From the sequence record AP029160.1: DNA of 64,000 bases; one strand, 5' to 3'. Below the pieces are notes generated by a model that saw only the letters and a list, made by a program, of their open reading frames with translations, did no database searches and was not told where the DNA came from. A program made the position numbers and the translations under genes. Below, piece by piece: positions 2,255 to 30,763 of the stretch (positions within the stretch are counted from its first letter, which is position 1; each line of letters begins with the position of its first letter). This stretch comes from a plasmid.

Positions 2255-4269
2255 GCTGAGACTTGCAGTGAATAAACGCTTTGATATGCTTTCTTCAACA
2301 AGTGATTTTACTAGTTCATTGCTGAGACTTGCAGTGAATAAACGCTTTGATATGCTTTTAGGGTCAAAAGTGGAGGAGCTAGGTCTGCTGAGACTTGCAG
2401 TGAATAAACGCTTTGATATGCTAAAACCTTGCAAAGCAAATGCAAAGGACATGCTGAGACTTGCAGTGAATAAACGCTTTGATATGCTAAAATTCGTTAC
2501 ATCAGCTCCAGCAGGAAAGCTGAGACTTGCAGTGAATAAACGCTTTGATATGCTATTTCAGTTGATTTCCAATATGGTTTTGTTGCTGAGACTTGCAGTG
2601 AATAAACGCTTTGATATGCTAGATACACTACCACCAATTGTATTGAGCGAGCTGAGACTTGCAGTGAATAAACGCTTTGATATGCTTGTTAGGAATTTAA
2701 ATACTTCACCTTTAATGCTGAGACTTGCAGTGAATAAACGCTTTGATATGCTATAATTTCAGGAATTAAATCCCCTTTTATTGCTGAGACTTGCAGTGAA
2801 TAAACGCTTTGATATGCTCAGAAGGCGATTTACCGGAGGGCGTTTCTAGCTGAGACTTGCAGTGAATAAACGCTTTGATATGCTAGATTGTACCGCTTGC
2901 AGGTAGCTTAATTTGCTGAGACTTGCAGTGAATAAACGCTTTGATATGCTATCTGTCGGATTCGTGTCCGACACTTTGTTGCTGAGACTTGCAGTGAATA
3001 AACGCTTTGATATGCTTTAATAGATATAGATAAAGTTACTTTATGGGCTGAGACTTGCAGTGAATAAACGCTTTGATATGCTAATACTTTTGAAATGGAA
3101 CCTCATATTTTAGCTGAGACTTGCAGTGAATAAACGCTTTGATATGCTTGATTATTTAAATTTAGATAATATAAATTAGCTGAGACTTGCAGTGAATAAA
3201 CGCTTTGATATGCTCGCATCGGATGATATAAAATCACCATCTGCGCTGAGACTTGCAGTGAATAAACGCTTTGATATGCTAAATTTTTTGAGTTTTTGTG
3301 GCCTACTATCGCTGAGACTTGCAGTGAATAAACGCTTTGATATGCTATATAGGCACGATTTCGAAAGAGCGGGATTGCTGAGACTTGCAGTGAATAAACG
3401 CTTTGATATGCTTCGTTGGACGCAAACATGGAATAGCAATTGGCTGAGACTTGCAGTGAATAAACGCTTTGATATGCTAATAGGATGTACTTATATATTC
3501 AGACATATGCTGAGACTTGCAGTGAATAAACGCTTTGATATGCTATTATTTATAGGAAATAGGACAACGTGTCCGCTGAGACTTGCAGTGAATAAACGCT
3601 TTGATATGCTTTTTTTCTTTTTTAATAAAGACAATTATGTGCTGAGACTTGCAGTGAATAAACGCTTTGATATGCTAAAGCTTCTTTAAAACATTTCTTA
3701 AAAGTGGCTGAGACTTGCAGTGAATAAACGCTTTGATATGCTTTCTAATTTTGTTGGCAAAAATGATTTGATGCTGAGACTTGCAGTGAATAAACGCTTT
3801 GATATGCTGCCACGTTATGATCGCCTGCACCAAGAGAGCTGAGACTTGCAGTAAATAAACGCTTTGATATGCTTAAAATTTTTAATTCAGTTCATAGTAT
3901 TCTGCTGAGACTTGCAGTGAATAAACGCTTTGATATGCTCAAACGTACCGTTAGAATTTATTGCTATTTGCTGAGACTTGCAGTGAATAAACGCTTTGAT
4001 ATGCTAAAACCAGCTTCTTTCAGACAAGAAAGAACGCTGAGACTTGCAGTGAATAAACGCTTTGATATGCTAGTGAGAGGCTAGGATCATTTTCCGCGAC
4101 AGCTGAGACTTGCAGTGAATAAACGCTTTGATATGCTTTCTTTACTGGATTCTACAAATTCGAATTCGCTGAGACTTGCAGTGAATAAACGCTTTGATAT
4201 GCTTAGAAATCATAAAATATTAAACATGATAATGCTGAGACTTGCAGTGAATAAACGCTTTGATATGCT
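2255..4269 (+). CRISPR. CRISPR array, 31 repeats of 36 nt (GCTGAGACTTGCAGTGAATAAACGCTTTGATATGCT), ~30 spacers of 29-31 nt
   Basis: Exact 66-bp periodicity. One variant repeat (G->A at ~3853). Adjacent to cas2. The repeat 3' part is complementary to the tracrRNA anti-repeat. Confidence 0.97.
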
Positions 4270-4274
4270 AGATC

Positions 4275-4310
4275 CTAATATAATTTCATAATTATATTAG
4301 GGTTTTTTGT
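4275..4310 (+). terminator. rho-independent terminator at the cas2-proximal end of the array
   Basis: Perfect 12-bp stem cctaatataatt/aattatattagg, followed by gttttttgtgatttt on the + strand. Confidence 0.5.
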
Positions 4311-4320
4311 GATTTTAGGC

Positions 4321-4674
4321 TCAAAAAAGTAGAATTTGAGGGAGTGGTTTTTCAATATTACCCTCGTTTTTTCCAAAAAAGACTTTTCGTTTTCCAAATT
4401 GTTTATCAGTAACCAATAATAATCTTACTTGTCCAGAAGGTGGAATTCTTTCTTGAATCATATTTTGTAAGCTTATGCTAGCTTCTTCACTTGAAAAATA
4501 GATAGCATAGACTGAAAATTGAAGCATTGTGAATCCTTTAGAAATCAGAAACTTTCTAAATTTAGTATATTCTTTCCGATCTATTTTTGTCACAACTGGT
4601 AAATCAAATAATGCAAATAGCCACACTGCGCTGTATGCTCCTGGTCCATTTATATTTTTATTATTTATTTTCAA
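4321..4674 (-). CDS. cas2: CRISPR-associated endoribonuclease Cas2
   Basis: 117 aa. Position after cas1. Cas2-like core LQFSVYAIY. Confidence 0.85.
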   Translation of the reverse strand: MKINNKNINGPGAYSAVWLFALFDLPVVTKIDRKEYTKFRKFLISKGFTMLQFSVYAIYFSSEEASISLQNMIQERIPPSGQVRLLLVTDKQFGKRKVFFGKNEGNIEKPLPQILLF

Positions 4675-4706
4675 ATAAACTCTTCTTTATAAAAATTTTC
4701 TAATTT

Positions 4707-5597
4707 CTATTTAAGAAGATTCGGTAAAATAATTTTAGGTTCTTGGGAAAGAAATGCATTAGAGAGACTTTGTGCTGATAGGGTAATTATATCCTGAAGC
4801 GGTCGTTCTTCCTTGTTGAAATTAAATTTTTTATACATAATTTCAATTAAACGTTTTTTGATTGATGTGTCTAAATTGAATGGACTCTGTAATTCTTCTG
4901 AAATTAAAAAAACTTCATTGTCAATAATTGGACGAAAAGGTTCCATAACATCATCCGCTAAGCAAAATGCATTGTACTTGCTTTTATGAAATATTCCTAT
5001 GGAAGGATTTAAGCCTGTAGCGCATAATGATCTTGCAACGACGGCCCTTAAAATAGCATACCCATAATTTAAAAATTTATTTTCGTCTTCAGCAGAAATA
5101 TCCCTTTTGAATTCTTTCATAGGATGTATATTTTTCCAATATATTCTGGCAGCCTGTGCTTCTAAATTTCCTTCGTCTCCACTTTTAACTTCTTTGCACA
5201 TTTTTAAAAGTCCAAAATGAGCACCTTTTTTTCTTAATAAAAGAGAGCCTTGAACTTCAATTTTTCGTGCAATAACCTTTTTCCAAAGTTGTTTTTTAAA
5301 TGGAATTGAAGAGAGAATCTGTTTTGCAAAACGCTGTGTTTGCGAAGAATGAGCATCAAGTGGTAAAAGCATTCCTATGGGCATGTGCCTTTCATCGCTA
5401 CAAACAAATATACTTCCATTTTCAGATAATTTTGAAAGTACTGCATGCGTGTATGTTACTGCTGGTGAAGAAACAATGAGAGCAGCAATATCAGAAAAAG
5501 GTAAGGTAACTCTATTTTCTCCTTCAATGACAAGGAGGTCATTGAAGGAGGAAAGACGCACTTTCTGAGTAGAAATATCAATAATTTTTTTTGTCAT
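4707..5597 (-). CDS. cas1: CRISPR-associated integrase Cas1 (type II)
   Basis: 296 aa. The start overlaps the cas9 stop (ATGA). Type II Cas1-like sequence. Confidence 0.9.
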   Translation of the reverse strand: MTKKIIDISTQKVRLSSFNDLLVIEGENRVTLPFSDIAALIVSSPAVTYTHAVLSKLSENGSIFVCSDERHMPIGMLLPLDAHSSQTQRFAKQILSSIPFKKQLWKKVIARKIEVQGSLLLRKKGAHFGLLKMCKEVKSGDEGNLEAQAARIYWKNIHPMKEFKRDISAEDENKFLNYGYAILRAVVARSLCATGLNPSIGIFHKSKYNAFCLADDVMEPFRPIIDNEVFLISEELQSPFNLDTSIKKRLIEIMYKKFNFNKEERPLQDIITLSAQSLSNAFLSQEPKIILPNLLK

Positions 5598-8500
5598 TCA
5601 TGACTTTCAAAAAGATCACCCAATGGGGAAACAATAATTTTTTTACATTTTAGAGCATATAATGAATTTGGTGAGACATTAGGAAAATCAGATGTCTTAA
5701 TTCTGTCACATTGAGGCCGAGCATCATGGGAAGGTGAATGGTAAATGCGGGAATCACTTGTAATAGATTTTACACTCCTTAATTTTACCTCTCCATTCTT
5801 ATCTGTTATTTCTATTATGTCTCCCTTCATTAGAGAGAATTTAAAATACCCCCCTTTTTCTTTTAGAGCATCTTTATCAATAACAGGACGATTATTCTTT
5901 TTTCTAGTCATCGCTTCTAGGCGTGAAACAACTATAGCTTCCCAGGTAACTTTTTTTCCTTTTGTAATTTCATAGTAAGCTATATGATGATTCTCATCTG
6001 CTTGAACATTTCTTTCTTGCAATCCCTTTCCAATTTGTAAAGGTGATGCTGTTCGTGCTTTTACACGCACCGACTTAATATATATTTTTTCTCCCTTTTG
6101 TTTTGCAAAAGGTCTTTTAAACTGTTCGTTATGTTTTACAATAAGGAAGGGAAGTGTTTTTTCATCGTCCAATTTGAAAGCTTTTTTTGGAATCTTAGTT
6201 CCAATTTCAGCTAATTTTCTCATAACACAATCTTTAATATTGGGATCAATTATATTTCCTAATTCTCTGTCAGTTAGTGAATCCAAAGGTTTTCGAATTG
6301 GGATATAATTTTCACCTAATTTGTCTTTGTTACTTTTACCATAGAATGTTTCCTTATGTAATGAACCATTAATTTTTCTGTCTACTCTAAAGGATATTTG
6401 AATTTTTGATACATGCTCTTGAGCTTGTTCTAATAAATTCTCCCAAATTTTATCTAATTTTCCAAATTTGCTTTTAGATTCCTTTTCCGCATTTTTTGCT
6501 GCTCGATTGAGTAAGTTTATAGATTTTTCAGATGTTAAAGCAATTACAAGTGCATCTACTGCATGATGTCTGTGGTCATTTCTTGATTTTATATTTTCTT
6601 TTGAAAGTATTGAATTTAATTTCCACATATTTCGTAAATAGGCAGTTATTTGACCAGTGCTTGCTCTTACTCGGAGATAATTGTTCCCATCAACTTCTCC
6701 TCCATAAAGAAGTCCTAGATAATTTTTTGCAAGTTTTGTTGCATAACGGGTATCATTTAACATTTGGCTAGCAAAATCTTGTTCACTTGTTGCATCTTTT
6801 TGCTTAAAAAGTTGTATTTTTTTATATTTCCCATTTCCTTTGAATTTTTCAACCCTTTTTAATATTTCTGAGTATTTTTCTGGACTGCCAATCCCATAAG
6901 CTTCATACGGGGTTTGGTTTTTTTTAACATTTCTATTTTCAAAATAATGGCAAAGAGTTTTATTTAAAAAAGAATCATCAAGACTTCTACTCAAAGGTAC
7001 AATATGTTCCACATCAAATTGAGGATTTTTCCCAAAGAGATCTTCCATGCTTATTATCTTTCCTGTATAGGGGCATTGATAATTGCATTCAACATATAAT
7101 AGATATTTTTCAATATCAGACTTACTTATTTTAAGGCTTGGTGAGTATTCTAATATTTTATTTTCTGCTTCTACTCTTTCGCTAGCACGACTTTTATTAG
7201 CCTTTAAAATATTTTCTCTAAACTCTTTTCCTTTTTTGAGTTCACGCGCAAGTTCTATTCGTATCTGTTTAGGTTTTCCGTACTTCTTGATTATGCTGTT
7301 TACAATTTTTCGAAGCTCAGACAAAGTTCTTGAAACTATCGGATTGCGTAAAGAAGGATCGACTTTACCATAAGATGGTAATAAATTAAAAATGTTTTTA
7401 TCGTTTTCATCTTTATAACCTGCATTTATTTTTGCTTCATAAAGATCCTTTCCTTCTCTTAAAAATGGAAGGATTTTTTCAACTGCGGTACTACTATATG
7501 CGAGGTAGCCTTCTTCTAAATTTATTTGAGAAAGTTTAGATGCTGTTTCTGAGTCTAATTTCCATTTTTCTTTAAAATGCTTTTCTAGTGCAATTTGTGA
7601 ATCAAAACTAATTAAAGCATTTACAATTTTTTCTTGATCAATTTTACTATGAGAGAAGAATCCACTGTAAACACTGAAAATTTTGCTAGAAGTGGTATCT
7701 CCTTTCACTTCATTTTCATCATATTTGAATTTTTCATCTTTTTCCAAGTTTAATATTTTTTTTAAGTAAGAAACTTTTATTTTATCTTTCTTTAAAAATT
7801 CATTGAAAATAATCTCTCTCTCATAAGGGGTCAATGATCTTTCTGTAGTAGTTGAAAAGCTATTTATAATCCGAAAATTATTTATCGTTTGTTTTGCTCT
7901 AAATTCTTGTGCATTTAAAAATGCAATTTTCATTCTTCTTTTGTCTTTTTCAAGTTTACAAAATCCAATAAATTTTTTAACAGATTTAAGAGGCCTTTGG
8001 TGAAAAATAGATTTATATATATTTTTTTTAACTTCGTTGTTTTCAAAAAAATGATTATTGCCTAATGAAATTTGTGAGCTTATAATTTTTTCATATTCTT
8101 CTTCATACATTTTTCGAGAAGTATATTTTTTTCTAATTCTAATTTTATCAGGTTCAAAAGTTGAAAAAAGTTCTCCTAAAGTTCTAAATTCACTTTCTTC
8201 CATGTTCTCATATAACTTTTTAATCCCTCCTAAAACATTGCCAGTTTCAGCACTTTTACCAGATTTCCTATTACTTAAAAATCCTCTTCTTTGGCCTAAA
8301 TGAAACAATGCCCTACCTATTTCAAAAGGCTCTAATTTTTCATCTAATGCAATTTTACGCAAAAAATAAGGAAACACATTTGGAAGAGTTTTTTTATAAA
8401 TTTTATATAAATGTGGTTTGTGAGGGAGTACGAGACTCCATTTTTTTAATAAATCTATATCTAAATCTCTAATTATTTCTTGTCGAACTTCAAGCATTCT

Positions 8501-8857
8501 GCGTCTTATTTCTTTTTTTTTGGCTTGATTTGATATATTTTCTTCAAATGGGGAATTTATTTTTCCTAGTTGTGATTTAGAGAAGTTTGGGAGCAGAGAT
8601 GATTCTTGTAAAATTTTAAATAATTTGTTCATGCGCATCATACGACGATCTCGTGCTCTACGTGTTAAACGTGCTTCTCTTCTTTGAGCATTTTTAGAAC
8701 TTTCTGTGCCGAATTGATCTCTATTTACACCCTCATCAAAAATACGTACCCCCATTTTTTCAATATTTTGTTTTTCTTCATTGATTAGGCTCCAACCAAT
8801 ACTAGATGTTCCAAGATCTAAGCCCAAGATTAATTCATTAGTAGTTAAAGAACTCAT
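5594..8857 (-). CDS. cas9: Cas9 (type II-C size class, 1087 aa)
   Basis: RuvC-I motif LGLDLGTSSIGWSL at the N-terminus, HNH motif DVEHIVPLSRSLDDSFLNKTL, RuvC-III HHAVDALVIALT. No csn2 or cas4 in the locus. Confidence 0.93.
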   Translation of the reverse strand: MSSLTTNELILGLDLGTSSIGWSLINEEKQNIEKMGVRIFDEGVNRDQFGTESSKNAQRREARLTRRARDRRMMRMNKLFKILQESSLLPNFSKSQLGKINSPFEENISNQAKKKEIRRRMLEVRQEIIRDLDIDLLKKWSLVLPHKPHLYKIYKKTLPNVFPYFLRKIALDEKLEPFEIGRALFHLGQRRGFLSNRKSGKSAETGNVLGGIKKLYENMEESEFRTLGELFSTFEPDKIRIRKKYTSRKMYEEEYEKIISSQISLGNNHFFENNEVKKNIYKSIFHQRPLKSVKKFIGFCKLEKDKRRMKIAFLNAQEFRAKQTINNFRIINSFSTTTERSLTPYEREIIFNEFLKKDKIKVSYLKKILNLEKDEKFKYDENEVKGDTTSSKIFSVYSGFFSHSKIDQEKIVNALISFDSQIALEKHFKEKWKLDSETASKLSQINLEEGYLAYSSTAVEKILPFLREGKDLYEAKINAGYKDENDKNIFNLLPSYGKVDPSLRNPIVSRTLSELRKIVNSIIKKYGKPKQIRIELARELKKGKEFRENILKANKSRASERVEAENKILEYSPSLKISKSDIEKYLLYVECNYQCPYTGKIISMEDLFGKNPQFDVEHIVPLSRSLDDSFLNKTLCHYFENRNVKKNQTPYEAYGIGSPEKYSEILKRVEKFKGNGKYKKIQLFKQKDATSEQDFASQMLNDTRYATKLAKNYLGLLYGGEVDGNNYLRVRASTGQITAYLRNMWKLNSILSKENIKSRNDHRHHAVDALVIALTSEKSINLLNRAAKNAEKESKSKFGKLDKIWENLLEQAQEHVSKIQISFRVDRKINGSLHKETFYGKSNKDKLGENYIPIRKPLDSLTDRELGNIIDPNIKDCVMRKLAEIGTKIPKKAFKLDDEKTLPFLIVKHNEQFKRPFAKQKGEKIYIKSVRVKARTASPLQIGKGLQERNVQADENHHIAYYEITKGKKVTWEAIVVSRLEAMTRKKNNRPVIDKDALKEKGGYFKFSLMKGDIIEITDKNGEVKLRSVKSITSDSRIYHSPSHDARPQCDRIKTSDFPNVSPNSLYALKCKKIIVSPLGDLFESHE

Positions 8858-8926
8858 TTTTAGTACTCATAATAAAAGGATAAGAAAAAATTGACTTTTC
8901 TAATAAAACAAATTATTTAAATTTGT

Positions 8927-9024
8927 AAAGCATATCAAAGCGGTTATTCCATTGCTTGCTTTAGCAAGGGTTTATGCCCGCAGCCTTAAAAAGCTAGAGG
9001 GGCTTTCGTGGCTCCTCTTTTTTT
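8927..9024 (+). ncRNA. tracrRNA: predicted tracrRNA
   Basis: The first 14 nt of AGCATATCAAAGCGGTTATTCC (8929..) equal the reverse complement of the repeat 3' end, 20/22 overall, and an imperfect match continues further. Then an AAGG...CCTT nexus-like segment, then a terminator hairpin GAGGGGC-tttcgtg-GCTCCTC plus T7. A TTGACT -35 lies at 8891-8896. Confidence 0.75.
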
Positions 9025-9375
9025 GTTCTGTTGCAAAGATTTCAAAGTAACAAAGAACCTTGGAATTGATTTTCAAAACGACTATTCCAGACGCAATTAT
9101 CCAGCGAGGGAGCTAAATTGCTCCCAAATAGGCAAATGACTTTTAAATTTGAATTGCCCTTTTCTGAGCATATGATGGAGTTCAATACCTGTTAAAGTAG
9201 CTTTCGCCAATTTCAATGAGAAGAAACCAAACATAAGCTTCACTTTCTTTTTTATAAATCGATGGTCTTGTTCTACAAGATTATTTAGAGATTTATTTTG
9301 TCTTATTAAGATCTTATCTTCAGATTTAAGATCTTTGTTGATAACATTTAAAACTGCAAATACAAAAAATAAGTG
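9025..9375 (-). mobile_element. 3' remnant of a divergent IS6-family element
   Basis: GTTCTGTTGCAAA inverted repeat at 9025 and a transposase C-terminal coding remnant (...IWEQF.SLAG). It differs from the main IS6 copies in the subterminal region. Confidence 0.65.
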
Positions 9376-9428: not shown

Positions 9429-10331
9429 TTATTTTACCGCACCACTATCAATCAATGAGTGTTCTTTATGAGCATTTAACATTTGTTCATCATCAATTTT
9501 TCTTTCTCTTGATTCTAAATTTTTATAAATATAATCATCTCCATTTGTCTTTTCAGTAAGATGAAAATGTTTTAGTTTTAGCTCTATGTTTTCACGTTTA
9601 AGGGCTTCTTCTTTTTTAATTGACTCTAATTTCTCTAATAAAACAGCTTTATCAATTTCAAGCTTTTGAATGCTAAGAGCATTTAGTTCTGCTTTTTTAA
9701 GCCTTTCTTCAAGTTCCATAATTTTTTTCTTAGCTTCAAATTCCCTCTCTTCATAAGCACTATTCAATTTATTTTTATCCTCAAGTTGCTTCTTTAAGAT
9801 TGCAAGATCGCTTAAAAGCTGATTCATTTTTGCTTCTTGATTTTCAATAATATCTCTTAAAGATAAAATTTCTTTTTCTTTTGCTTCAAGCTCAAATCTT
9901 TGCTTCTCTTTATTTTGCAATACAAGATCAGTAAATTTTGCTTCTAATTCTTGATTTTTGCGTTCAAATTCCTCTTGTAGTTTTCCTTCTAATCCCTTTT
10001 TATATTCTTCAAATTCCCCCCTCTCTCTATTGAGTTCTTGCAATTCTTTTTTAGCTTGTTCCTGCATTTCAAATGCAATCAAGAGTTGCGAGCGATTAAG
10101 CTGGTTCAATCGGTTTGTGAGAATATCCACTTCTGCCAATGCTTTTTTTTGCTCGCTTTCTTCAGGTAGTGTTTGCATTTTAAAGGCTTCAACAGCGGCT
10201 TTAAAATATTGTTGCGGTTTCATTCCAGAGCGGTTGATTTCATTTTGAAAAAATTCACGCTCCTCAATAGAACTACAACGAAATTGGATTCTTGGATCAA
10301 TTTTTGAGGTGTTTACTTCTTCTATTGTCAT
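9429..10331 (-). CDS. coiled-coil protein with MobC-like RHH N-terminus
   Basis: N-terminus RIQFRCSSIEEREFFQNEINRSGMKPQQYFKAAV resembles the MobC ribbon-helix-helix. The remainder is heptad-rich E/K coiled coil. Confidence 0.35.
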   Translation of the reverse strand: MTIEEVNTSKIDPRIQFRCSSIEEREFFQNEINRSGMKPQQYFKAAVEAFKMQTLPEESEQKKALAEVDILTNRLNQLNRSQLLIAFEMQEQAKKELQELNRERGEFEEYKKGLEGKLQEEFERKNQELEAKFTDLVLQNKEKQRFELEAKEKEILSLRDIIENQEAKMNQLLSDLAILKKQLEDKNKLNSAYEEREFEAKKKIMELEERLKKAELNALSIQKLEIDKAVLLEKLESIKKEEALKRENIELKLKHFHLTEKTNGDDYIYKNLESRERKIDDEQMLNAHKEHSLIDSGAVK

Positions 10332-10522: not shown

Positions 10523-10987
10523 TTAATTCATAATTTTTAAAAAAAAATCGACTCTAATACAATTATCAGAAATAATTTCATAAAAATGAAAACCACTTTT
10601 TATTTTAACATTATTAATTTTAATATCTTTTTCAAGAGCAACTATATTTTGATTTTTAAAAAAATTTAATTTTTGAATTTTATCACTTTTTTCAGGATTG
10701 AATATAGTATCCTGAACAGCATCAAAATTCATTATAAAGAGCGATTTTTGATCTTTTCCATGCTCTTTATTTTTTGAATATTCTTTAAAAAATGTATTTA
10801 ATCTTTTATCTAGTTTTTGTTTTATATAATATTTTTTTATTGTTGGACAAGCGAGAAATATAAGAGTACCAACGGTTCCTATTGCAGCAACCCATGTTCC
10901 TATTGCGGTTATAAAATACCATGCGGTATCCCAAGTCCATTTTGAATCAATAATATGTTTAAATTGACAAAAAATATAATCAAACAT
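10523..10987 (-). CDS. membrane protein (start trimmed to internal Met to avoid overlap with the integrase)
   Basis: Predicted TM segment WYFITAIGTWVAAIGTVGTLIFLA. Lies downstream of the integrase. Confidence 0.3.
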   Translation of the reverse strand: MFDYIFCQFKHIIDSKWTWDTAWYFITAIGTWVAAIGTVGTLIFLACPTIKKYYIKQKLDKRLNTFFKEYSKNKEHGKDQKSLFIMNFDAVQDTIFNPEKSDKIQKLNFFKNQNIVALEKDIKINNVKIKSGFHFYEIISDNCIRVDFFLKIMN

Positions 10988-12014
10988 TTTTATCTCCTCT
11001 TTCTTTTTGATATTTAACTTTTCTTGCTGCACTTTCTTTTTCTTCATCGGTTTTCCGGATGTACATCATGGTGGTCATCATACTTTTATGACCAAGGAGA
11101 TCTTGAATTTCAGACAAGGGAACCCCATTCCTGTGAAGATGACTTGCAACAGTGGCACGGCAGGAGTGCGGGCTAATTTCTTTTGTAATTCCATGCTCAC
11201 GCGCAATACTTGTCACCATGCGCGCAAGGTAATCCCGATTGATTGGTTTTTTTGAGAACGGTGTAAGAGCAAAGAGAAAATCCTCTTTTTTAGCAAGAGG
11301 TCTTAAAGTAACAATGTAGCTTTTAAGGAGTGCGGCTAATTCATCACTTATTAAGGGAGCATGAATTTCTCCGCCTTTGATTTTCAAATGCAGCCTAGGG
11401 TATTTTCCTGTCAGGTCCAGATCTTTAATTTTGAGGGAACACAATTCTGTTGCTCTCATCCCTACGTGTGAGAGCGTGCTAAAAACGATGAAGCGAAGCC
11501 ATGCCCGATAATCCTCTTTTACTTTAAGAGGGTTTGTTGCTTTCTTATAGGACTCTTCGAGCGACTCTAAAATGCGAGCAATCTCTGCTTCTGATAATGC
11601 CTCTGTTTTCCCTTTAGATTTCTGTACTTTAGGCAAGCGTATGGCAGCCCCAGCATTTCTATCCACCCATCCTTCTTGAAACGAAAATTTAAGGAAGGAC
11701 AAAAGCGGAGAAAGCTTTGCGCACACCGAAGACGGCGGGTATGTGGCCAAAAGATAGCGTTTGTACGCATCCACATGATCTCGTTGAATTTCAGCGAGGC
11801 TTGCAAACGCAACCCCTTTTTCTAAACAAAATGCAAAAAAATCCCTTAAATGACGGGCATAATTTTGTCGTGTGTTATCACTTACATAACTGCCTAAAAA
11901 TCGAGCTTGTTTTAAGGCGATTTCAGGGGGGGATTTTTCAAAGTTGGTACTAGGAGACCCCCCAATTGAAGTTGAAGGTTGCTCTATGGATTGGCAATAT
12001 TGAGTTTCAGGCAT
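10980..12014 (-). CDS. tyrosine site-specific recombinase/integrase
   Basis: C-terminal catalytic signature HSCRATVASHL...LLGHKSMMTTMMYI (R..HxxR..Y). Confidence 0.85.
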   Translation of the reverse strand: MPETQYCQSIEQPSTSIGGSPSTNFEKSPPEIALKQARFLGSYVSDNTRQNYARHLRDFFAFCLEKGVAFASLAEIQRDHVDAYKRYLLATYPPSSVCAKLSPLLSFLKFSFQEGWVDRNAGAAIRLPKVQKSKGKTEALSEAEIARILESLEESYKKATNPLKVKEDYRAWLRFIVFSTLSHVGMRATELCSLKIKDLDLTGKYPRLHLKIKGGEIHAPLISDELAALLKSYIVTLRPLAKKEDFLFALTPFSKKPINRDYLARMVTSIAREHGITKEISPHSCRATVASHLHRNGVPLSEIQDLLGHKSMMTTMMYIRKTDEEKESAARKVKYQKERGDKNV

Positions 12015-18542: not shown

Positions 18543-21500
18543 TCACAGTTTATTTTTTACATGCTTTGATATTTTGTCCAAGTTTAATTTTCCTTCTTTT
18601 TTAGTGAACTCGAAGCGACCAAATAAATTGATGTGCTGCCAAGCTACAGGAGACATGGATTTTATTATATCTTCATTCCATTTTCCGTGTGCCATTAAAT
18701 TTGAAAATATAGATTCATTATAATAAATAATACAAAGCGTAATAAAACGAGCACAAGCATCCCAGACTTGCTGTTCTTCTTCTGTTTTAAATTTTAATTT
18801 ACCAAAATTTGCATACCCAACCGCTCGCTTTAATTGATGATAGCTTTCAACTCTGTTTAAAGCTTTTTGTACACCTTGTCTGAGTTCTGACGAATCTAAA
18901 TAGTCAAGCAAATAGATGCTTTTTAGAATACGATTATATTCCCATAAAGCATTTTTTGTTTTACTTTTATGAGTATGCGAGCTTATCTTTGCTGTTATTA
19001 TGCTCTGTGTAGTTTTTTTTATGCCAAGAGAATCATAATTTTTTGAATATTTTCCCATTCTTCAATTATAATTCTTGTATTAAATCTCTTTTTTGGTCTT
19101 AAATTTAAATGACTATAATCGCTTATATTTTTAAAAGACCCTATGGAATCAGTAAAAACATCATAAAAATCTTTATATCGGGGAGCGAATTGGTACCCAA
19201 ATGTATACAAAATTGCAAAATTTACATCATTAGTTCCATGTGTATCTGTTGAAAAAACTTCAGGATGAACGTCGCTTTTATTGCTAGATATTATATCATA
19301 AACATGATGGCTTTCATGATCATTTGCGCTAATTATTTTTGAATTAGTAGGAAGGATATTACCAACCATTGAATATGAAACAATACCTTTTTTTCGACCA
19401 AAATATTTAGGTGAATGTCTTGCATTAATAGTTGATACTTTTACCTCAAACTTTTGACCATCTCCAGCAAAATGAGCTAGCGAATTAATATGATACTTAG
19501 AAAAAATTGGTGATTTATAAATTTCGTTTGTGATTTTATCACAAGCATCTTTCACTGTTTCTAAGCGAATAAAGTTTTTTAAAGATGAGTATAAATTATT
19601 GTAAGAAAGATCTGAAACATCAGAAATTTTTTTAATACCCATATTAGTAGCTATAGCAATAATACAAGCAGTTATTGATTTTATATCTGCTTCTTCCTTT
19701 GTAAATCGACATAAAATATGCTCGAAACAGTCCATAATATTTGCGTTTTTTATGGCAAAATATATAACATCAATAAGATCTATTTGCTCCAATGACTCAA
19801 ATAAGTATTGGTTTACATCCTCAGATGATGAAGGAGTTTTTACATTCCATCTTGATTTTTTTAATGTTTTATTTTGTTCAAAATATATATTTTCACCTTT
19901 TTCAATTTTATTGTTTACCGTTATTAATTTTTTTTCGTATATTTCTTTTAGTTCATTTAGATGCTTTTCTGGTTTTTTATTGAAATTCTTTAGACCTAAT
20001 TCATGTATAAAATTATCTTTATTTTCCCATTCTTTATTTGTAACTAATTCACTTGCTAGGCTTTTATATTTTACACTATCCGAACAGTAAATAGAACCTG
20101 ATTCTAAATTTTCACAAATAAGCATATAGATCAAATATTCACATCGATCATAGCTGACTTTATTGTCATTAATTATATATTTTAAAAATTTTTTCGGTAT
20201 AAAATTTTCCTTAAATTCAAATATATTATTTTTATCTAAGTTCTTTTTTGATATGTGATTTTTTAATATATTCAACGCTTCTATCAATTTTGAGTTTTTA
20301 GATAAAAATTCAAAATCTATATTCATAATAATTGGTCTTAAATTTTTTTTAATTTTTTGATTTATTATTTCTATATATTCCCATTCAAATTCACTTTTAT
20401 CAAAACTTGCTTTATTTTCAATATAATCAGCAACAACTGCTAAAAGATTTTCCCTCAATAACGTAAAGGCTCTACCTTTTGTTTTTAAAAAAGTTTCGCT
20501 TTCAGGTATTTTTTTATCTAAAAATATTTTTAATATTTTACCTGCTTTAGGTACGTATTCATTCCCTTCTATCTTGTATTCTAGTATCTTTTCATCTGCA
20601 TAAAGCTTATATTCCGCTTCAAATAAATTTAAATTATACTTTAAAGCATTAATCATGTTATCATTATATTTATGAAATCTATGAAATAAAAAACAAATTA
20701 TATATAATCTTACAATTTTTATATCTCGAATATTTAATCTATATACAGAGTAAAATTCAACTAAAGAAGCATAATATTTTATACTTTCATTTGAAATCAT
20801 AAGTCTTGGAATTAAATTTTTTATTTTTATATAAAATTTTCTTATTTTACTACCTCTTATTATTTCTTCTTTTATTTCACCATATTTGAAATCTTTTGGG
20901 CTATGTTTTAGTGATGTAATTTCATATGTTTTATCTTGTTTTAGTTGTATTAATTTATTTAACTCATTTGAAAATCCAATATCTATATTTTCTTCAATAA
21001 TATTTATCAATCTTGATTCTTCTGAAAGCAATATTTTGCTTATAAAATCTTGCATGTATGAATATCTTGGAATAATAATTTTATTTTCATCCAAGAAATT
21101 AAAAAGTTCTCGAAAAATGTATTTTTGTTTTGCACTTATTTTAACTAGATTTAGTGCCTTTTCCTCTAATATTTCTAAATCTTTTTTATCAAAGTATTTA
21201 TACTTGAAAATATCTAATATTGTTTTTTTATTTTCAGTTGATGTTATTTTACTTACATCTTGTATTTTTTTTATACTTAAAATACTATTCTTAAAATGTT
21301 TCTCAACAATAAATTTAATATCTTCTTCAACTTCATTTAATTTAAAAGAAAAAAATCTATATTTAAATTTGAAATATCCCAATTGTAAAATAAAATTAAT
21401 TTTTGAATTTAAAATTCTGAGTTTATTTAAAGCAATATTTTCCTTGTGTGATAAATCAAAATAGATTTCTCTTTCTTCATCTGAAAATAGTGGTCTTTCA

Positions 21501-21595
21501 TAAATTAATTTAATTTCATCAGGTTTAAGAATAGTGAGTCGATTTGAATGGTGCTCACTTTCTTCTTTGTATTCATCATCAATTTCCAAAAGCAA
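18543..21595 (-). pseudogene. tnpA: Tn3-family transposase TnpA, split by a frameshift (858 aa + 171 aa ORFs overlapping at 19019-19058)
   Basis: The C-terminal ORF carries the Tn3 DDE C-terminal signature (RVESYHQLKRAV...INLFGRFEF). The two ORFs are contiguous, total ~1030 aa. Confidence 0.7.
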
Positions 21596-22366: not shown

Positions 22367-22658
22367 ATGCCTGAAATTAAATATAGAGAGACTACGCTGG
22401 AAGATTCCGATCAAACGGCATTAATAATGAAAGAAAACTGGGGTGGTGAACCTCTAATAGTCAGGACTAGAAGTTATTTCCCTAGTAAATTAAACGGTAT
22501 TATTGCTCAATCAGGTGAAAAATGGATCGGATTTTTATTTTACGATATTCGAGGGGATGATTGTGAAATTATTGTCTTTGAAGTTTTCGAAAAGTTTAAG
22601 GGAATAGGAACAAAAATCTTAGAACAACTTATAACAATTGCTCAAAATAAACTCTGCA
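22367..22658 (+). pseudogene. GNAT N-acetyltransferase, N-terminal half (interrupted by IS6 copy A)
   Basis: GNAT beta-strand pattern ...CEIIVFEVFEKFKGIGTKILEQLI. The ORF runs into the IS. The C-terminal half lies at 49503..49698 on the other strand. Confidence 0.7.
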
Positions 22659-23478
22659 GGTTCTGTTGCAAAAAATATATAAGTGAGAGTGGAGTAACTT
22701 TTTTTTGGAGTTGTTTGAGGGGAGTGGCGATGGATTTCAAGTGGAAGCATACTGATCGTATGATTATCATAATGGCAATCCGTTGGTATGTAGGCTACTC
22801 CCTAAGTTATAGGCAAGTAGAAGAACTTTTAGCAGAGCGTGGTATTTTTGTAGATCACACGACCATTCATCGTTGGATTGTGGAATACAGTCCAAAATTA
22901 CTTAAGAAGTTTTATAAGCTTAGAAAGCGTATCTGTGGAAGTTGGCGAATGGATGAGACTTACATCAAAGTAAAAGGTGAATGGTGTTATCTCTATAGAG
23001 CCGTGGATAAGCATGGTCAAACGATTGATATTTACCTTTCAAAACGAAGAGATACAACAAGTGCCAAACGTTTTTTCCAAAAATGCTTTCGTTCTTCTGG
23101 AATCCCAGAAAAGGTAAATATTGATAAAAGTGGCTCTAATACGGCAGCATTAAAGGCTATCAACAAAGATCTTAAATCTGAAGATAAAGTTCTAATAAGA
23201 CAAAATAAATATTTAAATAACCTTGTAGAGCAAGACCATCGATTTATAAAAAAGAAAGTAAAGCCTATGCTTGGTTTCTTCTCATTGAAATCGGCGAGAG
23301 CTACTTTAGCAGGTATTGAACTCCATCATATGCTCAGAAAAGGGCAATTCAAATTTAAAAGTCATTTGCCTATTTGGGAGCAATTTTGCTCCCTCGCTGG
23401 ATAATTGCACCTACAGAGGACATTCTTGAAAAGTAACAACCCAATGTTTCGTGGCTTCTAATTATTTGCAACAGAACC
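22659..23478 (+). mobile_element. IS6-family (IS26-like) insertion sequence, copy A, 820 bp
   Basis: 14-bp inverted repeat GGTTCTGTTGCAAA at both ends. 8-bp left flank ACTCTGCA. Confidence 0.9.
22730..23404 (+). CDS. IS6-family DDE transposase
   Basis: MDFKWKHTDRMIIIMAIRWY...DETYIKVKGEW.YLYRAVD. Resembles the IS26 Tnp. Confidence 0.85.
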   Translation: MDFKWKHTDRMIIIMAIRWYVGYSLSYRQVEELLAERGIFVDHTTIHRWIVEYSPKLLKKFYKLRKRICGSWRMDETYIKVKGEWCYLYRAVDKHGQTIDIYLSKRRDTTSAKRFFQKCFRSSGIPEKVNIDKSGSNTAALKAINKDLKSEDKVLIRQNKYLNNLVEQDHRFIKKKVKPMLGFFSLKSARATLAGIELHHMLRKGQFKFKSHLPIWEQFCSLAG

Positions 23479-23660
23479 CTAGGGACACCCCTAATAGGGA
23501 TGCCCTTTTTTTTGAGATCGGAATATTACACAAAAACACACGATATATCATATTAATATTATTAAATAATTAAATTTATTTATACTTATTTTAAATTTTT
23601 ATATTTAAATAAAATTTTATTCCGATAGGAAAATGTTCTTATAAAAAAGGAGACTCTCAT

Positions 23661-24428
23661 ATGTCTAAAAGGATAATCTTATTTACTTTTCTTTCTTTTA
23701 TCGTTTTTAGCTGCTCAAAAGGTGAAGGTGGAAGCATTGATAAAAATTCGTCAGATGCAACGGCTAATAACGATCTTTGTAAAATTCATTCAACAGCAAT
23801 AAATTCTAACGAAAAAATATCATATCAATACAATGCAATTAATTCACAATGGGAACTACTTCCAAGCTATCAAATTACACCTGATACAACACAAGTAAGT
23901 GGCACACCAATTCAATTAAGTCCAAACTCTCCAGAAATGATTATTAGTGGAAATGTTGGGCAAATTCCAAATGTCAACAATTTTATATCTTATACTTTAA
24001 GTAATAGTAATTTTGTTTATTTAACTAAATTACCTTCAATACCAACTGATAAAAGTATCGTTCAAGTAAATACAAACTCTAATTACATAGCAACAATAGA
24101 TTCAACATTATTTGGTGGTAATTTAGCTGACCTTAAAGGAAATGCTGGTAATTTATTTATCCATCATAGTGTAATAACTTCTCCACTCTATTTCATATAT
24201 GATCAAGCTTCACAGTCTTGGAGCCTTGTAAATAGTGTTTTAAATTTAATGGCAGGAAGTATTGCTCAATTGAATGGGCAATTACCAAGTGGAAACTTTA
24301 GTGCAATTAATTTTAGTTTATCTGCATATAGCTTTGTAACACCAGTGTATTTACCTAAAAATCCAATTGATAAAATGAAAATTAATATAATTAATAATAC
24401 GAATCAAAATGCGAATATTTGTTACTAA
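23661..24428 (+). CDS. lipoprotein (255 aa)
   Basis: Lipobox FSC after the signal peptide. Ser/Asn/Thr-rich. Confidence 0.55.
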   Translation: MSKRIILFTFLSFIVFSCSKGEGGSIDKNSSDATANNDLCKIHSTAINSNEKISYQYNAINSQWELLPSYQITPDTTQVSGTPIQLSPNSPEMIISGNVGQIPNVNNFISYTLSNSNFVYLTKLPSIPTDKSIVQVNTNSNYIATIDSTLFGGNLADLKGNAGNLFIHHSVITSPLYFIYDQASQSWSLVNSVLNLMAGSIAQLNGQLPSGNFSAINFSLSAYSFVTPVYLPKNPIDKMKINIINNTNQNANICY

Positions 24429-24504
24429 ATTACAAATAAATTTTTGCAAATAATTAAGAGTTACGAATCAGAGGTGTGTTACTTTTCAATTAGGTTCCAT
24501 TTAG

Positions 24505-25324
24505 GGTTCTGTTGCAAAAAATATATAAGTGAGAGTGGAGTAACTTTTTTTTGGAGTTGTTTGAGGGGAGTGGCGATGGATTTCAAGTGGAAGCATACTG
24601 ATCGTATGATTATCATAATGGCAATCCGTTGGTATGTAGGCTACTCCCTAAGTTATAGGCAAGTAGAAGAACTTTTAGCAGAGCGTGGTATTTTTGTAGA
24701 TCACACGACCATTCATCGTTGGATTGTGGAATACAGTCCAAAATTACTTAAGAAGTTTTATAAGCTTAGAAAGCGTATTTGTGGAAGTTGGCGAATGGAT
24801 GAGACTTACATCAAAGTAAAAGGTGAATGGTGTTATCTCTATAGAGCCGTGGATAAGCATGGTCAAACGATTGATATTTATCTATCAAAACGAAGAGATA
24901 CAACGAATGCCAAACGTTTTTTCCAAAAATGCTTTCGTACTTCTGGAATCCCAGAAAAGGTAAATATTGATAAAAGTGGCTCTAATACGGCAGCATTAAA
25001 GGCTATCAACAAAGATCTTAAATCTGAAGATAAGATCTTAATAAGACAAAATAAATATTTAAATAACCTTGTGGAACAAGACCATCGATTTATAAAAAAG
25101 AAAGTGAAGCCTATGCTTGGTTTCTTCTCATTGAAATCGGCGAGAGCTACTTTAGCAGGTATTGAACTCCATCATATGCTCAGAAAAGGGCAATTCAAAT
25201 TTAAAAGTCATTTGCCTATTTGGGAGCAATTTTGCTCCCTCGCTGGATAATTGCACCTACAGAGGACATTCTTGAAAAGTAACAACCCAATGTTTCGTGG
25301 CTTCTAATTATTTGCAACAGAACC
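24505..25324 (+). mobile_element. IS6-family IS, copy B, 820 bp
   Basis: Same inverted repeats as copy A. Confidence 0.9.
24576..25250 (+). CDS. IS6-family DDE transposase
   Basis: Identical family to 22730..23404. Confidence 0.85.
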   Translation: MDFKWKHTDRMIIIMAIRWYVGYSLSYRQVEELLAERGIFVDHTTIHRWIVEYSPKLLKKFYKLRKRICGSWRMDETYIKVKGEWCYLYRAVDKHGQTIDIYLSKRRDTTNAKRFFQKCFRTSGIPEKVNIDKSGSNTAALKAINKDLKSEDKILIRQNKYLNNLVEQDHRFIKKKVKPMLGFFSLKSARATLAGIELHHMLRKGQFKFKSHLPIWEQFCSLAG

Positions 25325-26123
25325 CACTTATAAACCTAAAGATAAGGCCAAAGTAGAAGTCGGGGTACAAGTAGCACAACGCTGGATCCTTGCTAAACTC
25401 AGAAAACAATTATTTTACTCAATTCAAGACATTAATGAAGCCATCTCTCCATTACTTGAAGCTTTAAATCATAAAAAGATGAAACACTTAAATGTTTCTA
25501 GATATGAATTGTATGAGCAATATGAAAAAAACCAACTCAAACCCCTACCTAAAGAACACTTCGAATTATATGAGTGGCGAAAAGCAAAAGTAAATATAGA
25601 TTACCATGTCCAATTTGAGTGTAATTATTACAGCGTTCCTTGTCATTATGTACATAAAAATGTTGAAATACGAATAACAACTAATACAATTGAAATATAT
25701 TTATCTAATAAAATGATTGCCGTTCATAAAAGACTTTTTTTAGTTGGCAAATATTCAACATACAAAGAGCACATGCCTCAGTCTCATCAGAAACATGTTG
25801 AGTGGACTCCAGAAAGAATGTTGAAATGGGCCTCCAATATAGGAGTTTCAACAAAAACATGTTTTGAAATTATGATTTCCAGAACTCAACACCCAGAACA
25901 AGGATTTCGTTCTTGTCTAGGTATACTTCGCCTTGGCCAACAATATTCTAATCTAAGATTAGAAAACGCTTGTTTAAGAGCCCTAAATACCGACCAAGTG
26001 AGTTTCAAATCAGTGAAAAATATCTTAAAAAACAACTTAGATAAAATAATAATAACTGAAACAAAAAAGAATGTCATAAATATTGAACACGAAAATATAC
26101 GTGGTTCTGATTATTATAATTAA
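25325..26123 (+). pseudogene. istA: IS21-family IstA transposase, C-terminal fragment (5' end removed by IS6 copy B)
   Basis: The frame is open from the IS boundary (KPKDKAKVEVGVQVAQRWILAKLR...). The C-terminal region is IstA-like. Confidence 0.65.
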
Positions 26124-26149: not shown

Positions 26150-26907
26150 ATGTTGAATGCACAGATTATAGAGCAATTAAAAAAATTAAATTTAAATATG
26201 TTTATGCAAGAATTAGAAGAGCAAGAAAAAAATAATGGCTATAAAGTTCTTTTTCTGATAGATTATCACTTCTGCTACAAAGAGAAATCCTTGAAAGAGA
26301 AAATAAAAATATTAAGCGAAAAATAACAAATGCAAAATTAAAGCAAAAAGCAAGTCTAGAAAATATTAAAACCAGCCTGGAACGTGGATTAGATAAAACA
26401 GCTTTACAATCACTAAGTACCTGTGAATGGTTAAAAAGAAAACAGAATATCATAATTACAGGAGCAACAGGTGTAGGAAAAAGTTTTTTAGCTTCAGCAT
26501 TAGCAGAAAAAGCATGCAGATCTGGATTTCAAGCTAGATATTTTCGCTATCAAAGTCTTTTATCTGAGCTTACGTTTTCAGTTGCTGATGGTTCATTTAA
26601 AAACTACTTACTAAAACTAGAAAAATTAAATTTAATCGTAATTGATGATTGGGCTTTGCATTCTATAACAGAAATAGAACAAAAATATTTATTCGAACTG
26701 ATTGAAGCTAGAAGTGAAAATTCTTCTACAATTTTTGTCAGCCAAACACCAATAGCAAGTTGGCATTCTCTCATGCCTAATTCTACCATTGCAGACGCTA
26801 TTCTGGATAGAATTGTTCACACTGCGATAAGAATTGAACTCAAGGGGGAATCCATGCGGAAAAAATCAGATCATAAAATTGACGAGGAGACTGCGATTAT
26901 GAAATAG
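26150..26907 (+). pseudogene. istB: IS21-family IstB ATPase, frameshifted
   Basis: The N-terminus MLNAQIIEQLKKLNL and the Walker A ITGATGVGKSFLASALA plus VIDDW are in different frames. Confidence 0.6.
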
Positions 26908-27445
26908 AATCTTTGAGCAGAATCATAGCCTCTACGGATGCCGCTTTCAATCGGAAACCCGTACCGAATTCGATTGGAATTCACCACCGCTTTCAGCGGA
27001 ATATGCAATAATAACTAAAAATAATAAACTATACCTAGGAGAAAGTAAATATCATCATGATAGATACTATTATCAGGATGATGTTTTAAATAAAAGCTAT
27101 TACATAAATGATCATTCATATTTTAAATCAGAGAATTTTTTTATTGATAAAGAAAATGAAAAAATAACACTAAAATATAAATATACCTCACCTGTTTGGA
27201 TTGAAGAAAATAAAGTAAATGATGTAATAATTCATAATATAGAAAGAAATAAAAAAATGGCTTTTTTTATAAATAACTTATTTAATTAATTTTTAGTTTA
27301 ATCTTATTTAAATACGCATTCTCAACTCTTAAATGGCATATATAGTTCATTGAAATTTCGAAATAAATAATTTAAATTTAAAAATATCTAGAAAAAGAAT
27401 GCACATTACTAATATTTTAAATATTCAAGTTTTACAATTAAGAAT

Positions 27446-28281: not shown

Positions 28282-29101
28282 GGTTCTGTTGCAAAAAATA
28301 TATAAGTGAGAGTAGAGTAACTTTTTTTTGGAGTTGTTTGAGGGGAGTGGCGATGGATTTCAAGTGGAAGCATACCGATCGTATGATTATCATAATGGCA
28401 ATCCGTTGGTATGTAAGCTACTCCCTAAGTTACAGGCAAGTAGAAGAACTCCTAGCAGAGCGTGGTATTTTTGTAGATCACACGACAATTCATCGTTGGA
28501 TTGTGGAATACGTTCCAAAATTACTTAAGAAGTTTTATAAGCTTAGAAAGCGTATCTGTGGAAGTTGGCGAATGGATGAGACTTACATCAAAGTAAAAGG
28601 TGAATGGTGTTATCTCTATAGAGCCGTGGATAAGCATGGTCAAACGATTGATATTTACCTTTCAAAACGAAGAGATACAACAAGTGCCAAACGTTTTTTC
28701 CAAAAATGCTTTCGTTCTTCTGGAATCCCAGAAAAGGTAAATATTGATAAAAGTGGCTCTAATACGGCAGCATTAAAGGCTATCAACAAAGATCTTAAAT
28801 CTGAAGATAAAGTTCTAATAAGACAAAATAAATATTTAAATAACCTTGTAGAGCAAGACCATCGATTTATAAAAAAGAAAGTAAAGCCTATGCTTGGTTT
28901 CTTCTCATTGAAATCGGCGAGAGCTACTTTAGCAGGTATTGAACTCCATCATATGCTCAGAAAAGGGCAATTCAAATTTAAAAGTCATTTGCCTATTTGG
29001 GAGCAATTTTGCTCCCTCGCTGGATAATTGCACCTACAGAGGACATTCTTGAAAAGTAACAACCCAATGTTTCGTGGCTTCTAATTATTTGCAACAGAAC
29101 C
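28282..29101 (+). mobile_element. IS6-family IS, copy C, 820 bp
   Basis: Inverted repeats GGTTCTGTTGCAAA. Confidence 0.9.
28353..29027 (+). CDS. IS6-family DDE transposase
   Basis: As above. Confidence 0.85.
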   Translation: MDFKWKHTDRMIIIMAIRWYVSYSLSYRQVEELLAERGIFVDHTTIHRWIVEYVPKLLKKFYKLRKRICGSWRMDETYIKVKGEWCYLYRAVDKHGQTIDIYLSKRRDTTSAKRFFQKCFRSSGIPEKVNIDKSGSNTAALKAINKDLKSEDKVLIRQNKYLNNLVEQDHRFIKKKVKPMLGFFSLKSARATLAGIELHHMLRKGQFKFKSHLPIWEQFCSLAG

Positions 29102-30209: not shown

Positions 30210-30763
30210 AATTTAATATTATTTATTAAATTATGATTATATTAAAAAAATATTGATTTTATCGTCAAAATATTTCTGAGTACTTGTTTAAAAAATCTTA
30301 AGTTGCAAATTAAATTTTTAGTATGAGTTAGCAGTCAATTGACTGCTAAGAAATTTGATTTTTTAGCTCTTCTGAAATATTTTAAAGACTTACTGAACTA
30401 GGCTTGTGGTCTAAAAATAAAATTTAGATTGTGAACAAGTTAAAGCTTCTTGAAACGCTCGTCTCTAGCATTAGGGGTAATCTGCAACAAGGGTACTTCT
30501 ATGTAAGTATTTTTTTTGATAGCTCATCTGCCAAGTGCGGGGGTTCCTGAATATTCAGGCCAAAAGTCTAACAAAGAAAAAGTTATCATTGCATTTCAAT
30601 GGTAACTCTTAAAAACCGAAAAAACATTATCCTACTTTTTCCCTTTTTCGTTCCAACCACTTTTTAGCCCTCCTTGTGCAAAAAATTTTTCTAACATAGA
30701 ATGCATACCATTGTAATTGTTACAAAATAGAAAATTTTTTTTGCACACAAAAGGAGGAATTTT

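Follow-up and report, generated by a model that had tools for sequence, protein, structure and literature searches.

The window analysed here, a 64,000-nt stretch of DNA (sequence record AP029160.1; ~30% GC), contains between positions 2255 and 9024 a CRISPR array, followed by cas2, cas1, and cas9 on the minus strand and by a trans-activating CRISPR RNA (tracrRNA) that lies upstream of cas9 and runs divergently on the plus strand. The original prediction had placed these elements within exactly these limits, and all of them were located there; the open reading frames (ORFs), the profile scores, and an exact repeat scan agree that cas9 is followed by cas1 and cas2 and then by a 31-repeat array. 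We consider it very probable that the locus is an intact and complete CRISPR-Cas9 system of adaptive immunity, of type II-C, and that it comes from a bacterium of the Silvanigrellaceae (Bdellovibrionota), a relative of Pigmentibacter. Only 51 nt separate the array from cas2, and the three cas ORFs are tightly packed, with the stop codon of cas9 and the start codon of cas1 overlapping by 4 nt. The features of the locus are as follows.

2255-4269, plus strand: CRISPR array of 31 repeats of 36 nt and 30 spacers (exact scan; tracrRNA complementarity, plus-strand terminator, and a protospacer-adjacent motif (PAM) signal on the 3′ side only)
4270-4311, plus strand: hairpin and U-tract, read as the intrinsic terminator of the array (same position in five loci)
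4321-4674, minus strand: cas2, 117 amino acids (aa) (TIGR01573; PADLOC Cas2_II; ratio of nonsynonymous to synonymous substitution rates, dN/dS)
4707-5597, minus strand: cas1, 296 aa, type II (NMENI) subfamily (TIGR03639; PADLOC Cas1_II; dN/dS)
5594-8857, minus strand: cas9, 1087 aa (TIGR01865; Pfam; motifs; PDB alignment; homologue length; dN/dS)
8891-8919, plus strand: putative sigma-70 promoter of the tracrRNA, read from the sequence (TTGACT, 17 nt, TATTTA)
about 8927-9024, plus strand: tracrRNA of about 98 nt (anti-repeat, hairpins, terminator, cofold, consensus structure over five loci)

Pigmentibacter is a freshwater and clinical bacterium, and the closest named relative of the locus is found in Pigmentibacter sp. 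JX0631 (CP123622.1, protein P0003; locus L002), with Cas9, Cas1, and Cas2 that are 61%, 68%, and 72% identical to those of the window. The two loci share the operon, the repeat family, the divergent tracrRNA upstream of cas9, the post-array terminator, and a homologous 251-aa neighbour gene. In contrast to the window, JX0631 carries a second array past the tracrRNA; with respect to the common neighbour gene, the orientation of its module is reversed. The uncultured relatives are L001, a contig from activated sludge (Cas9 89% identical, the closest hit in the protein collection), L003 (81%), and three contigs of the metagenome Ga0164295 (L024, L026, and L019). These contigs share the module boundaries (window 4274-9022) and have the same or nearly the same tracrRNA, whereas their spacers are entirely different and their flanking genes unrelated. 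Within a small clade, the Cas9 identities are thus 89%, 81%, and 61%; outside it, a search of 5.8 billion clusters gave a Cas9 identity of at most 44%. This is the value for L004 (1-8062), a further activated-sludge contig, which encodes a 1110-aa Cas9 that is flanked by arrays and has a divergent tracrRNA of its own; no cas1 or cas2 is present on this 8-kb contig. The placement of the window in the Silvanigrellaceae is based on the nearest named Cas proteins, on a flanking gene with 72% nucleotide identity to the JX0631 chromosome, on a 490-bp segment with 97% identity to a plasmid of Pigmentibacter ruber, and on the targets of the spacers. Scans of 185,579 species genomes with a Cas9 peptide pattern and with the 30-nt tracrRNA core returned no match, and the assignment therefore stops at the family.

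A comparison of the three proteins with Cas profiles had been set beforehand as a test, and all of them score far above the curated cut-offs. Cas9 reaches 636.7 bits against NCBIfam TIGR01865 (cut-off 100), Cas1 reaches 266.8 bits against cas1_NMENI TIGR03639 (cut-off 120) and 324.9 bits against PADLOC Cas1_II, and Cas2 reaches 55 bits against TIGR01573 (cut-off 24.5) and 121 bits against PADLOC Cas2_II. PADLOC calls Cas9, Cas1_II, and Cas2_II in the locus, and Pfam calls HNH_4, RuvC_III, Cas9_a, Cas_Cas1, and CRISPR_Cas2. Based on a motif scan and the alignment to solved Cas9s, the catalytic motifs of Cas9 are RuvC-I with D14 in GLDLGTSS, RuvC-II with E535 in IRIELAREL, HNH with H618 in DVEHIVP and N632 in FLNKTL, and RuvC-III with H765 and D768 in HHAVDAL. 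The predicted 1087-aa Cas9 with RuvC-I, HNH, and RuvC-III motifs is borne out by the TIGR01865 score, the Pfam HNH_4 and RuvC_III matches, and these residues; the D of DLGTSS and the H of the HNH motif, singled out in advance, are unsubstituted. The locus thus encodes a single large effector with the RuvC-I, RuvC-II, RuvC-III, and HNH motifs that define a type II system.

All three proteins are as long as their homologues, and Cas9 is equal in length to its 89% and 81% identical relatives. For cas9, cas1, and cas2, comparison with the closer relatives L001, L003, and L024 gives dN/dS values of 0.06-0.13, and comparison with JX0631, which is more distant, gives 0.11-0.21; per gene, the values against the relatives are 0.11-0.12 for cas9, 0.06-0.13 for cas1, and 0.11 for cas2. 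The 117-aa cas2 frame opens at a TTG codon, and the true start may be a few codons further in.

The plus strand from 8929 reads AGCATATCAAAGCGGTTATTCCATTGCTTGCTTTAGC. The anti-repeat, which begins there with AGCATATCAAAGCGGTTATTCC and spans 8929-8965 (plus), pairs with the plus-strand repeat over its full length, except for two internal loops. On its 3′ side, a small GGGU/GCCC hairpin is followed by a GC-rich terminator hairpin (8996-9018) and a T-run, and the intrinsic terminator, AGAGGGGCTTTCGTGGCTCCTCT with the T-run, occupies 8996-9024. An anti-repeat, 3′ hairpins, and a terminator, as required of a type II tracrRNA, are thereby all present. The candidate promoter at 8891-8919 (TTGACT-17-TATTTA) would start transcription at about 8926-8929. 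The consensus scanner did not call this promoter, since the last base of the -10 element is A; the arrangement TTGAC(T/A)-17-TAnTnA also occurs in L001 and L003. In Rfam, no family matches the tracrRNA, even at E ≤ 10.

The repeat and the tracrRNA cofold at -63 kcal/mol in the window, and at -60 to -67 kcal/mol over four loci. Moreover, the same divergent element lies upstream of cas9 in L001, L003, L002, and L024. In the consensus fold of the five loci, 46 pairs are retained, of which two are compensatory: a UA↔CG change in the repeat:anti-repeat duplex and an AU↔GC change in the terminator stem. The tracrRNA proposed upstream of cas9 is therefore conserved in four related loci, with compensatory changes that match their repeats.

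In the array (2255-4269), the exact scan locates the 36-nt repeat GCTGAGACTTGCAGTGAATAAACGCTTTGATATGCT 31 times, and there is no copy elsewhere in the window on either strand. The array had been described as uniform with a single degenerate repeat; indeed, 30 of the 31 repeats are identical, and the copy at 3838-3873 carries a single G-to-A change. The spacers are 30 nt long in 29 of 30 cases, the spacer at 3809-3837 having 29 nt. An array of ~36-nt repeats and ~30-nt spacers adjoining the cas operon is again a hallmark of type II. Directly 3′ of the last repeat lies the stem AGAUCCUAAUAUAAUU-UCAU-AAUUAUAUUAGGGUUUUUUG (4270-4311, plus), and a hairpin with a U-run follows the last repeat in the CRISPR RNA (crRNA) sense in five of five loci, with differing stem sequences. 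We read this element as the probable intrinsic terminator of the array transcripts. By analogy with Neisseria (PMC12477760), it would also lie within a short cas2-proximal leader, the site of new-spacer addition.

The 3′ end of the repeat forms an extended -10-like motif, TGATATGCT. The four relatives whose repeat belongs to the same family (L001-L003 and L024) keep it as TGATAYGCT, and in the distant L004 it appears as TGATATGAT. From this motif, we infer a putative promoter embedded in each repeat. In the type II-C systems of Neisseria and Campylobacter, crRNAs are made in this mode: each repeat contains a promoter, the crRNA 5′ ends lie within the spacers, and RNase III is dispensable. The repeat boxes of these systems drive one short crRNA each, starting at about the sixth spacer base, and in Neisseria the acquisition leader adjoins the last transcribed repeat, at the transcriptionally downstream end (PMC5965381, PMC12477760).

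What does the array target? The comparison of the spacers with plasmids, as originally suggested, returned two elements of Pigmentibacter ruber strain GTC16762 (plasmid records AP029162.1, our L007, and AP029161.1, our L029 and L030). Spacer 15 matches pGTC16762-3 over exactly 30 nt, with 28/30 identities, in the search of the plasmid collection. A local search added spacers 9 (27/30), 3 and 4 (26/30 each), and 18 (25/30) on pGTC16762-3 or pGTC16762-2. In addition, spacers of the related arrays match the same P. ruber elements, two IMG/VR contigs, and contig L004. With up to five mismatches allowed, 23 spacer matches were obtained against the Pigmentibacter phage-plasmids, the IMG/VR contigs, and L004, as compared to none in each of five spacer shuffles. 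The spacer matches are genuine.

Both P. ruber elements (44.8 kb for pGTC16762-3 and 68 kb for pGTC16762-2) encode a terminase large subunit and contain long series of small genes that are tightly packed; in addition, a baseplate J protein is encoded by pGTC16762-2 and a YqaJ recombinase by pGTC16762-3. Because of the terminase and the tightly packed small genes, and the baseplate protein in pGTC16762-2, two of the three GTC16762 “plasmids” look like extrachromosomal phages.

Beyond these elements, the array gave only chance-level matches against 50,697 phage records (best E = 1e-2, extending into the repeat), and only noise in the plasmid collection apart from P. ruber. Searches of IMG/VR returned neither relatives of the pGTC16762-2 head gene nor exact matches to the 22 nt at the 3′ side of spacers 28, 17, 10, and 6. 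Within the window, no spacer has a self-target with fewer than eight mismatches. Spacer 26 has a 17-nt exact match at 23795-23811 and 54329-54345, in a duplicated block containing an insertion sequence (IS), which we rejected as chance with its nine mismatches overall. Two observations concern L004 itself: one of its spacers matches pGTC16762-3 at 28/30, and a block of small genes beside its Cas9, with a faint AcrVA2-like match, is hit at 29/30 by a spacer of the L024 array.

The protospacer flanks allowed the PAM inference that had been called for. Read in the crRNA sense, the 3′ flanks in the window lineage are TGTTGC, GATTGC, TTTTAA, AATTGT, CGTCGC, TGTTTC, AATTGC, TATATC, and GTTTCA. Over these nine protospacers, T is found at position 3 in 9/9 (p = 9e-5) and at position 4 in 7/9 (p = 1e-2), G at position 5 in 5/9 (p = 5e-3), and C at position 6 in 6/9 (p = 5e-4), which provisionally suggests a PAM near 5′-NNTTGC on the 3′ side. 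On the 5′ side, no position is conserved, and an apparent CACAAC near two protospacers stands at differing offsets and was discarded. In contrast to the window, six protospacers of JX0631 give NNCNCC (N4CC), with C at position 5 in 5/6 and at position 6 in 6/6. This PAM difference fits the divergence of the WED and PAM-interacting (PI) region of Cas9, which is 91% identical between the window and L001, and 53% identical between the window and JX0631.

Is the locus still at work? Its homology with the relatives covers 4274-9022, from the terminator to the tracrRNA, and ends at 9022-9029. Beyond the tracrRNA, a second CRISPR array follows in L024 (3401-4965) and in L002/JX0631 (5312-7040), and L024, unlike the window, keeps this array together with a terminator and a 3′ remnant of cas2 behind it. 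The window lacks the second array and has in its place, from 9092, a 266-bp fragment of an IS6-type element, which suggests an IS-associated deletion. At the opposite boundary, L001, L002, L019, and L024 carry degenerate repeats at the cas-distal end of the array, the transcriptionally upstream end.

Several observations weigh against the overall picture drawn here. The degenerate repeat that the relatives have at the cas-distal end of the array is missing, and so is the second array; therefore, the locus has been rearranged in an IS-rich region. No protospacer is perfect, the best match of a window spacer being 28/30, and the PAM rests on 7-9 diverged targets. As for the putative promoter in the repeat, the -10 hexamer TATGCT fits the consensus at four of six positions, and the consensus scanner made no call. 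Furthermore, the bases of the motif are also part of the repeat:anti-repeat duplex, so that a promoter gains no independent support from their conservation.

The locus could accordingly be a decaying or silenced remnant, structurally complete yet no longer acquiring spacers or interfering, and stranded in an IS-riddled region. The IS6 fragment 70 bp past the tracrRNA, where the relatives have the second array, would fit such a history, as would the distal end without a degenerate terminal repeat and the spacer matches obtained, all of which have 2-6 mismatches and fall in the cas-distal half of the array, the older one. However, the ORFs are full length and of the same sizes as their homologues, with dN/dS values around 0.1, the repeats are identical in 30 of 31 copies, and the terminators are intact, as is the tracrRNA with its putative promoter. 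Moreover, close strains have wholly different spacer sets: the three Ga0164295 contigs share an identical repeat and 94-96% cas DNA identity with the window, and not one spacer, which indicates recent spacer turnover in the lineage. We therefore consider a remnant unlikely, and the system most probably functional. The spacers against mobile elements, together with a consistent flanking PAM, are those of an immune system; as all of the matches are imperfect, they do not by themselves demonstrate current interference.

Which strand of the array is transcribed? The crRNAs would be read from the plus strand toward cas2, convergently with the cas operon, because the RNA that carries the anti-repeat at its 5′ end comes from the plus strand and has its terminator on that strand. 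The polarity is independently confirmed by the protospacers, since a conserved flank exists only on their 3′ side and none on the 5′ side. The decay of the cas-distal repeats in the relatives fits the same polarity. If the array were instead transcribed from the minus strand, in the direction of the cas operon, then the leader would lie beside cas2, as in II-A systems, and the PAM would fall on the other side. In its order of cas2 and array, the locus does resemble II-A systems, and the short region next to cas2 could serve as such a leader. However, a minus-strand transcript would equal the anti-repeat rather than complement it, and the strand of the tracrRNA is set by its promoter, its 5′-end anti-repeat, and its plus-only terminator. 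The hairpin and U-run after the array are likewise found in the plus sense only, and the flanks are conserved only 3′ of the protospacers (plus sense) in the window lineage and JX0631 alike. Minus-strand transcription is accordingly very improbable, and we retain the plus-strand polarity.

The assignment to subtype II-C is based on the gene content, the Cas1 subfamily, the repeat and spacer sizes, the tracrRNA, the size of Cas9, and its best structural relatives. The adaptation genes are limited to those for Cas1 of the NMENI subfamily and Cas2, as in II-C systems. Among the solved structures, the best matches of Cas9 are chains of ~1055-1154 aa, at E-values of 1e-69 to 1e-53. They include 9ar4 and 8uza (1e-69 to 1e-67), which we take to be of the GeoCas9 type, and 6jdq and 6kc8 (~3e-67), presumably Nme1Cas9, as the search output does not name the organism. 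Chains that we take to be SaCas9 and St1Cas9, which are II-A proteins, score far lower (~1e-35 to 1e-31). By these E-values, the Cas9 would group with the II-C orthologs and not with the II-A or II-B clades. The absence of csn2 and cas4, from which II-C had been deduced, also held: the flanking ORFs at 280-609, 612-890, 1102-1860, 1961-2137, 9429-10331, and 10980-12014 have no Csn2 or Cas4 match in Pfam or PADLOC, nor do they match any defence family. That the locus is instead of subtype II-A or II-B, with csn2 or cas4 overlooked or elsewhere, has a negligible probability: it has in its favour only the general possibility of a gene displaced in a rearranged region, and against it stand the mere 51 nt between cas2 and the array, the flanking ORFs without such a match, the same three-gene operon in four related loci, and the best PDB matches, which we take to be II-C chains of the GeoCas9 and Nme1Cas9 types.

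Based on these results, we propose the following mechanism for the II-C system. The array would be read from the plus strand toward cas2. As in Neisseria and Campylobacter, transcription would most likely be driven by the TGATATGCT motif of every repeat, so that the RNA begins some bases inside the spacer, and would end at the hairpin and U-run between the array and cas2. The repeat portion of the crRNA would then pair with the anti-repeat of the tracrRNA, and the duplex would be loaded into Cas9. The RuvC and HNH domains would cut DNA with a match of ~23-30 nt beside a 3′ PAM, provisionally 5′-NNTTGC. Cas1-Cas2 would insert new spacers at the cas2-proximal end. The natural targets would include phages kept as plasmids in Pigmentibacter.

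The surroundings of the locus are rich in IS elements, as the original prediction had stated: a ~820-bp IS6-type element is present in eight or more copies, full or partial, and a Tn3 transposase, a TnpB, and a group II intron also occur. The features next to the locus and the copies of the element are listed here.

2190-2248, strand not assigned: GC-rich, near-perfect hairpin, stem of 24 bp (z = -8.8; single occurrence in the window)
9092-9357, strand not assigned: IS6-type fragment, 266 bp, part of the ~820-bp element repeated in the window (DDE_Tnp_IS240)
22659-23479, 24505-25325, 28282-29101, 49699-50520: full or partial IS6 copies
53193-54013, 55039-55859, 55860-56589, 46221-46562: full or partial IS6 copies

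The hairpin lies immediately next to the first repeat, on the side on which the relatives carry degenerate repeats. We considered it as a degenerate repeat and rejected this, as it is out of register and has only an 8-mer in common with the repeat. Beyond the hairpin are a 58-aa Phd/YefM-like ORF and a 252-aa Cys-rich ORF, the latter without a match in Pfam or PADLOC. The region with both ORFs (1096-2137) is 72% identical at the nucleotide level to a region of the JX0631 chromosome (L002 4259-5187) that also abuts an array. There, the homologue of the 252-aa ORF adjoins the opposite array end, with the relative orientation reversed; therefore, the module has been inverted or trimmed.

The copies of the IS6 element (DDE_Tnp_IS240) are 93-100% identical. 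The window also contains a 2.7-kb segmental duplication (22646-25328 and 53180-55862), an 858-aa Tn3-family transposase (19019-21595, minus), a 344-aa tyrosine recombinase/integrase (10980-12014, minus), a group II intron domain (62972-63048, minus; Rfam RF00029, 43.4 bits), and a 454-aa TnpB with OrfB_IS605 and Cas12f1-like TNB domains (31428-32792, minus). About 0.5-1 kb downstream of the TnpB gene, an unannotated 490-bp segment (30451-30940) is 97% identical to the end of pGTC16762-2; between the window and the plasmid records, only a 490-bp and a 50-bp stretch match, and a plasmid origin of the window was rejected on this ground. A 127-nt segment (26882-27008) matches the extreme end of L001 (14500-14626) at 100% identity; a shared repeat or IS probably ends there, at the point where the assembly of L001 broke.

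One of the nearest known counterparts of the system is that of N. meningitidis, with which the locus shares the cas9-cas1-cas2 operon, the 36-nt repeats and 30-nt spacers, and a Cas9 of ~1080 aa (Nme1Cas9 has 1082 aa). Both repeats have an extended -10-like box at their end, TGCTACAAT in N. meningitidis and TGATATGCT in the window. The PAM of Nme1Cas9 is N4GATT, in contrast to the apparently NNTTGC-like PAM of the window. The Neisseria array is likewise read toward the cas genes, with the leader at the downstream, cas2-proximal end (PMC5965381, PMC12477760). The differences are that the two Cas9s are only ~30-35% identical over the aligned core, that the window tracrRNA lies upstream of cas9 and is divergent, and that the host belongs to the Bdellovibrionota rather than the betaproteobacteria. 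GeoCas9 and CjCas9, which are among the best-scoring solved structures, resemble the window Cas9 in size class and domain order, and differ in PAM and guide RNAs. Within the Silvanigrellaceae, a II-C system was reported by CRISPRCasTyper for Spirobacillus cienkowskii (PMC12321486). According to this published description, which gives no sequence detail, family and subtype are the same, and II-C has thus already been recorded in the Silvanigrellaceae.

The Cas9 is a new ortholog of a well-known II-C kind, the system is standard, and the understanding of II-C systems is unchanged by the locus. Its predicted features nevertheless provide a well-delimited Cas9 ortholog from a little-studied phylum, with its guide RNAs and transcription polarity defined. 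A compact Cas9 with a possibly short, provisional T-rich PAM could be useful for compact genome editors. More tentatively, this Cas9 might be a compact, mesophilic nuclease that reads a short, T-rich PAM with no more than N2TT as its core, while its 61% identical cousin reads N4CC, a doubtful idea at present. If true, this would be a natural swap of the PAM-interacting domain, which could be mined for editors with a new targeting range. For the organisms themselves, the locus appears to show IS6 activity trimming a CRISPR locus, and it links the so-called plasmids of the clinical P. ruber to phages met by the CRISPR systems of the Silvanigrellaceae.

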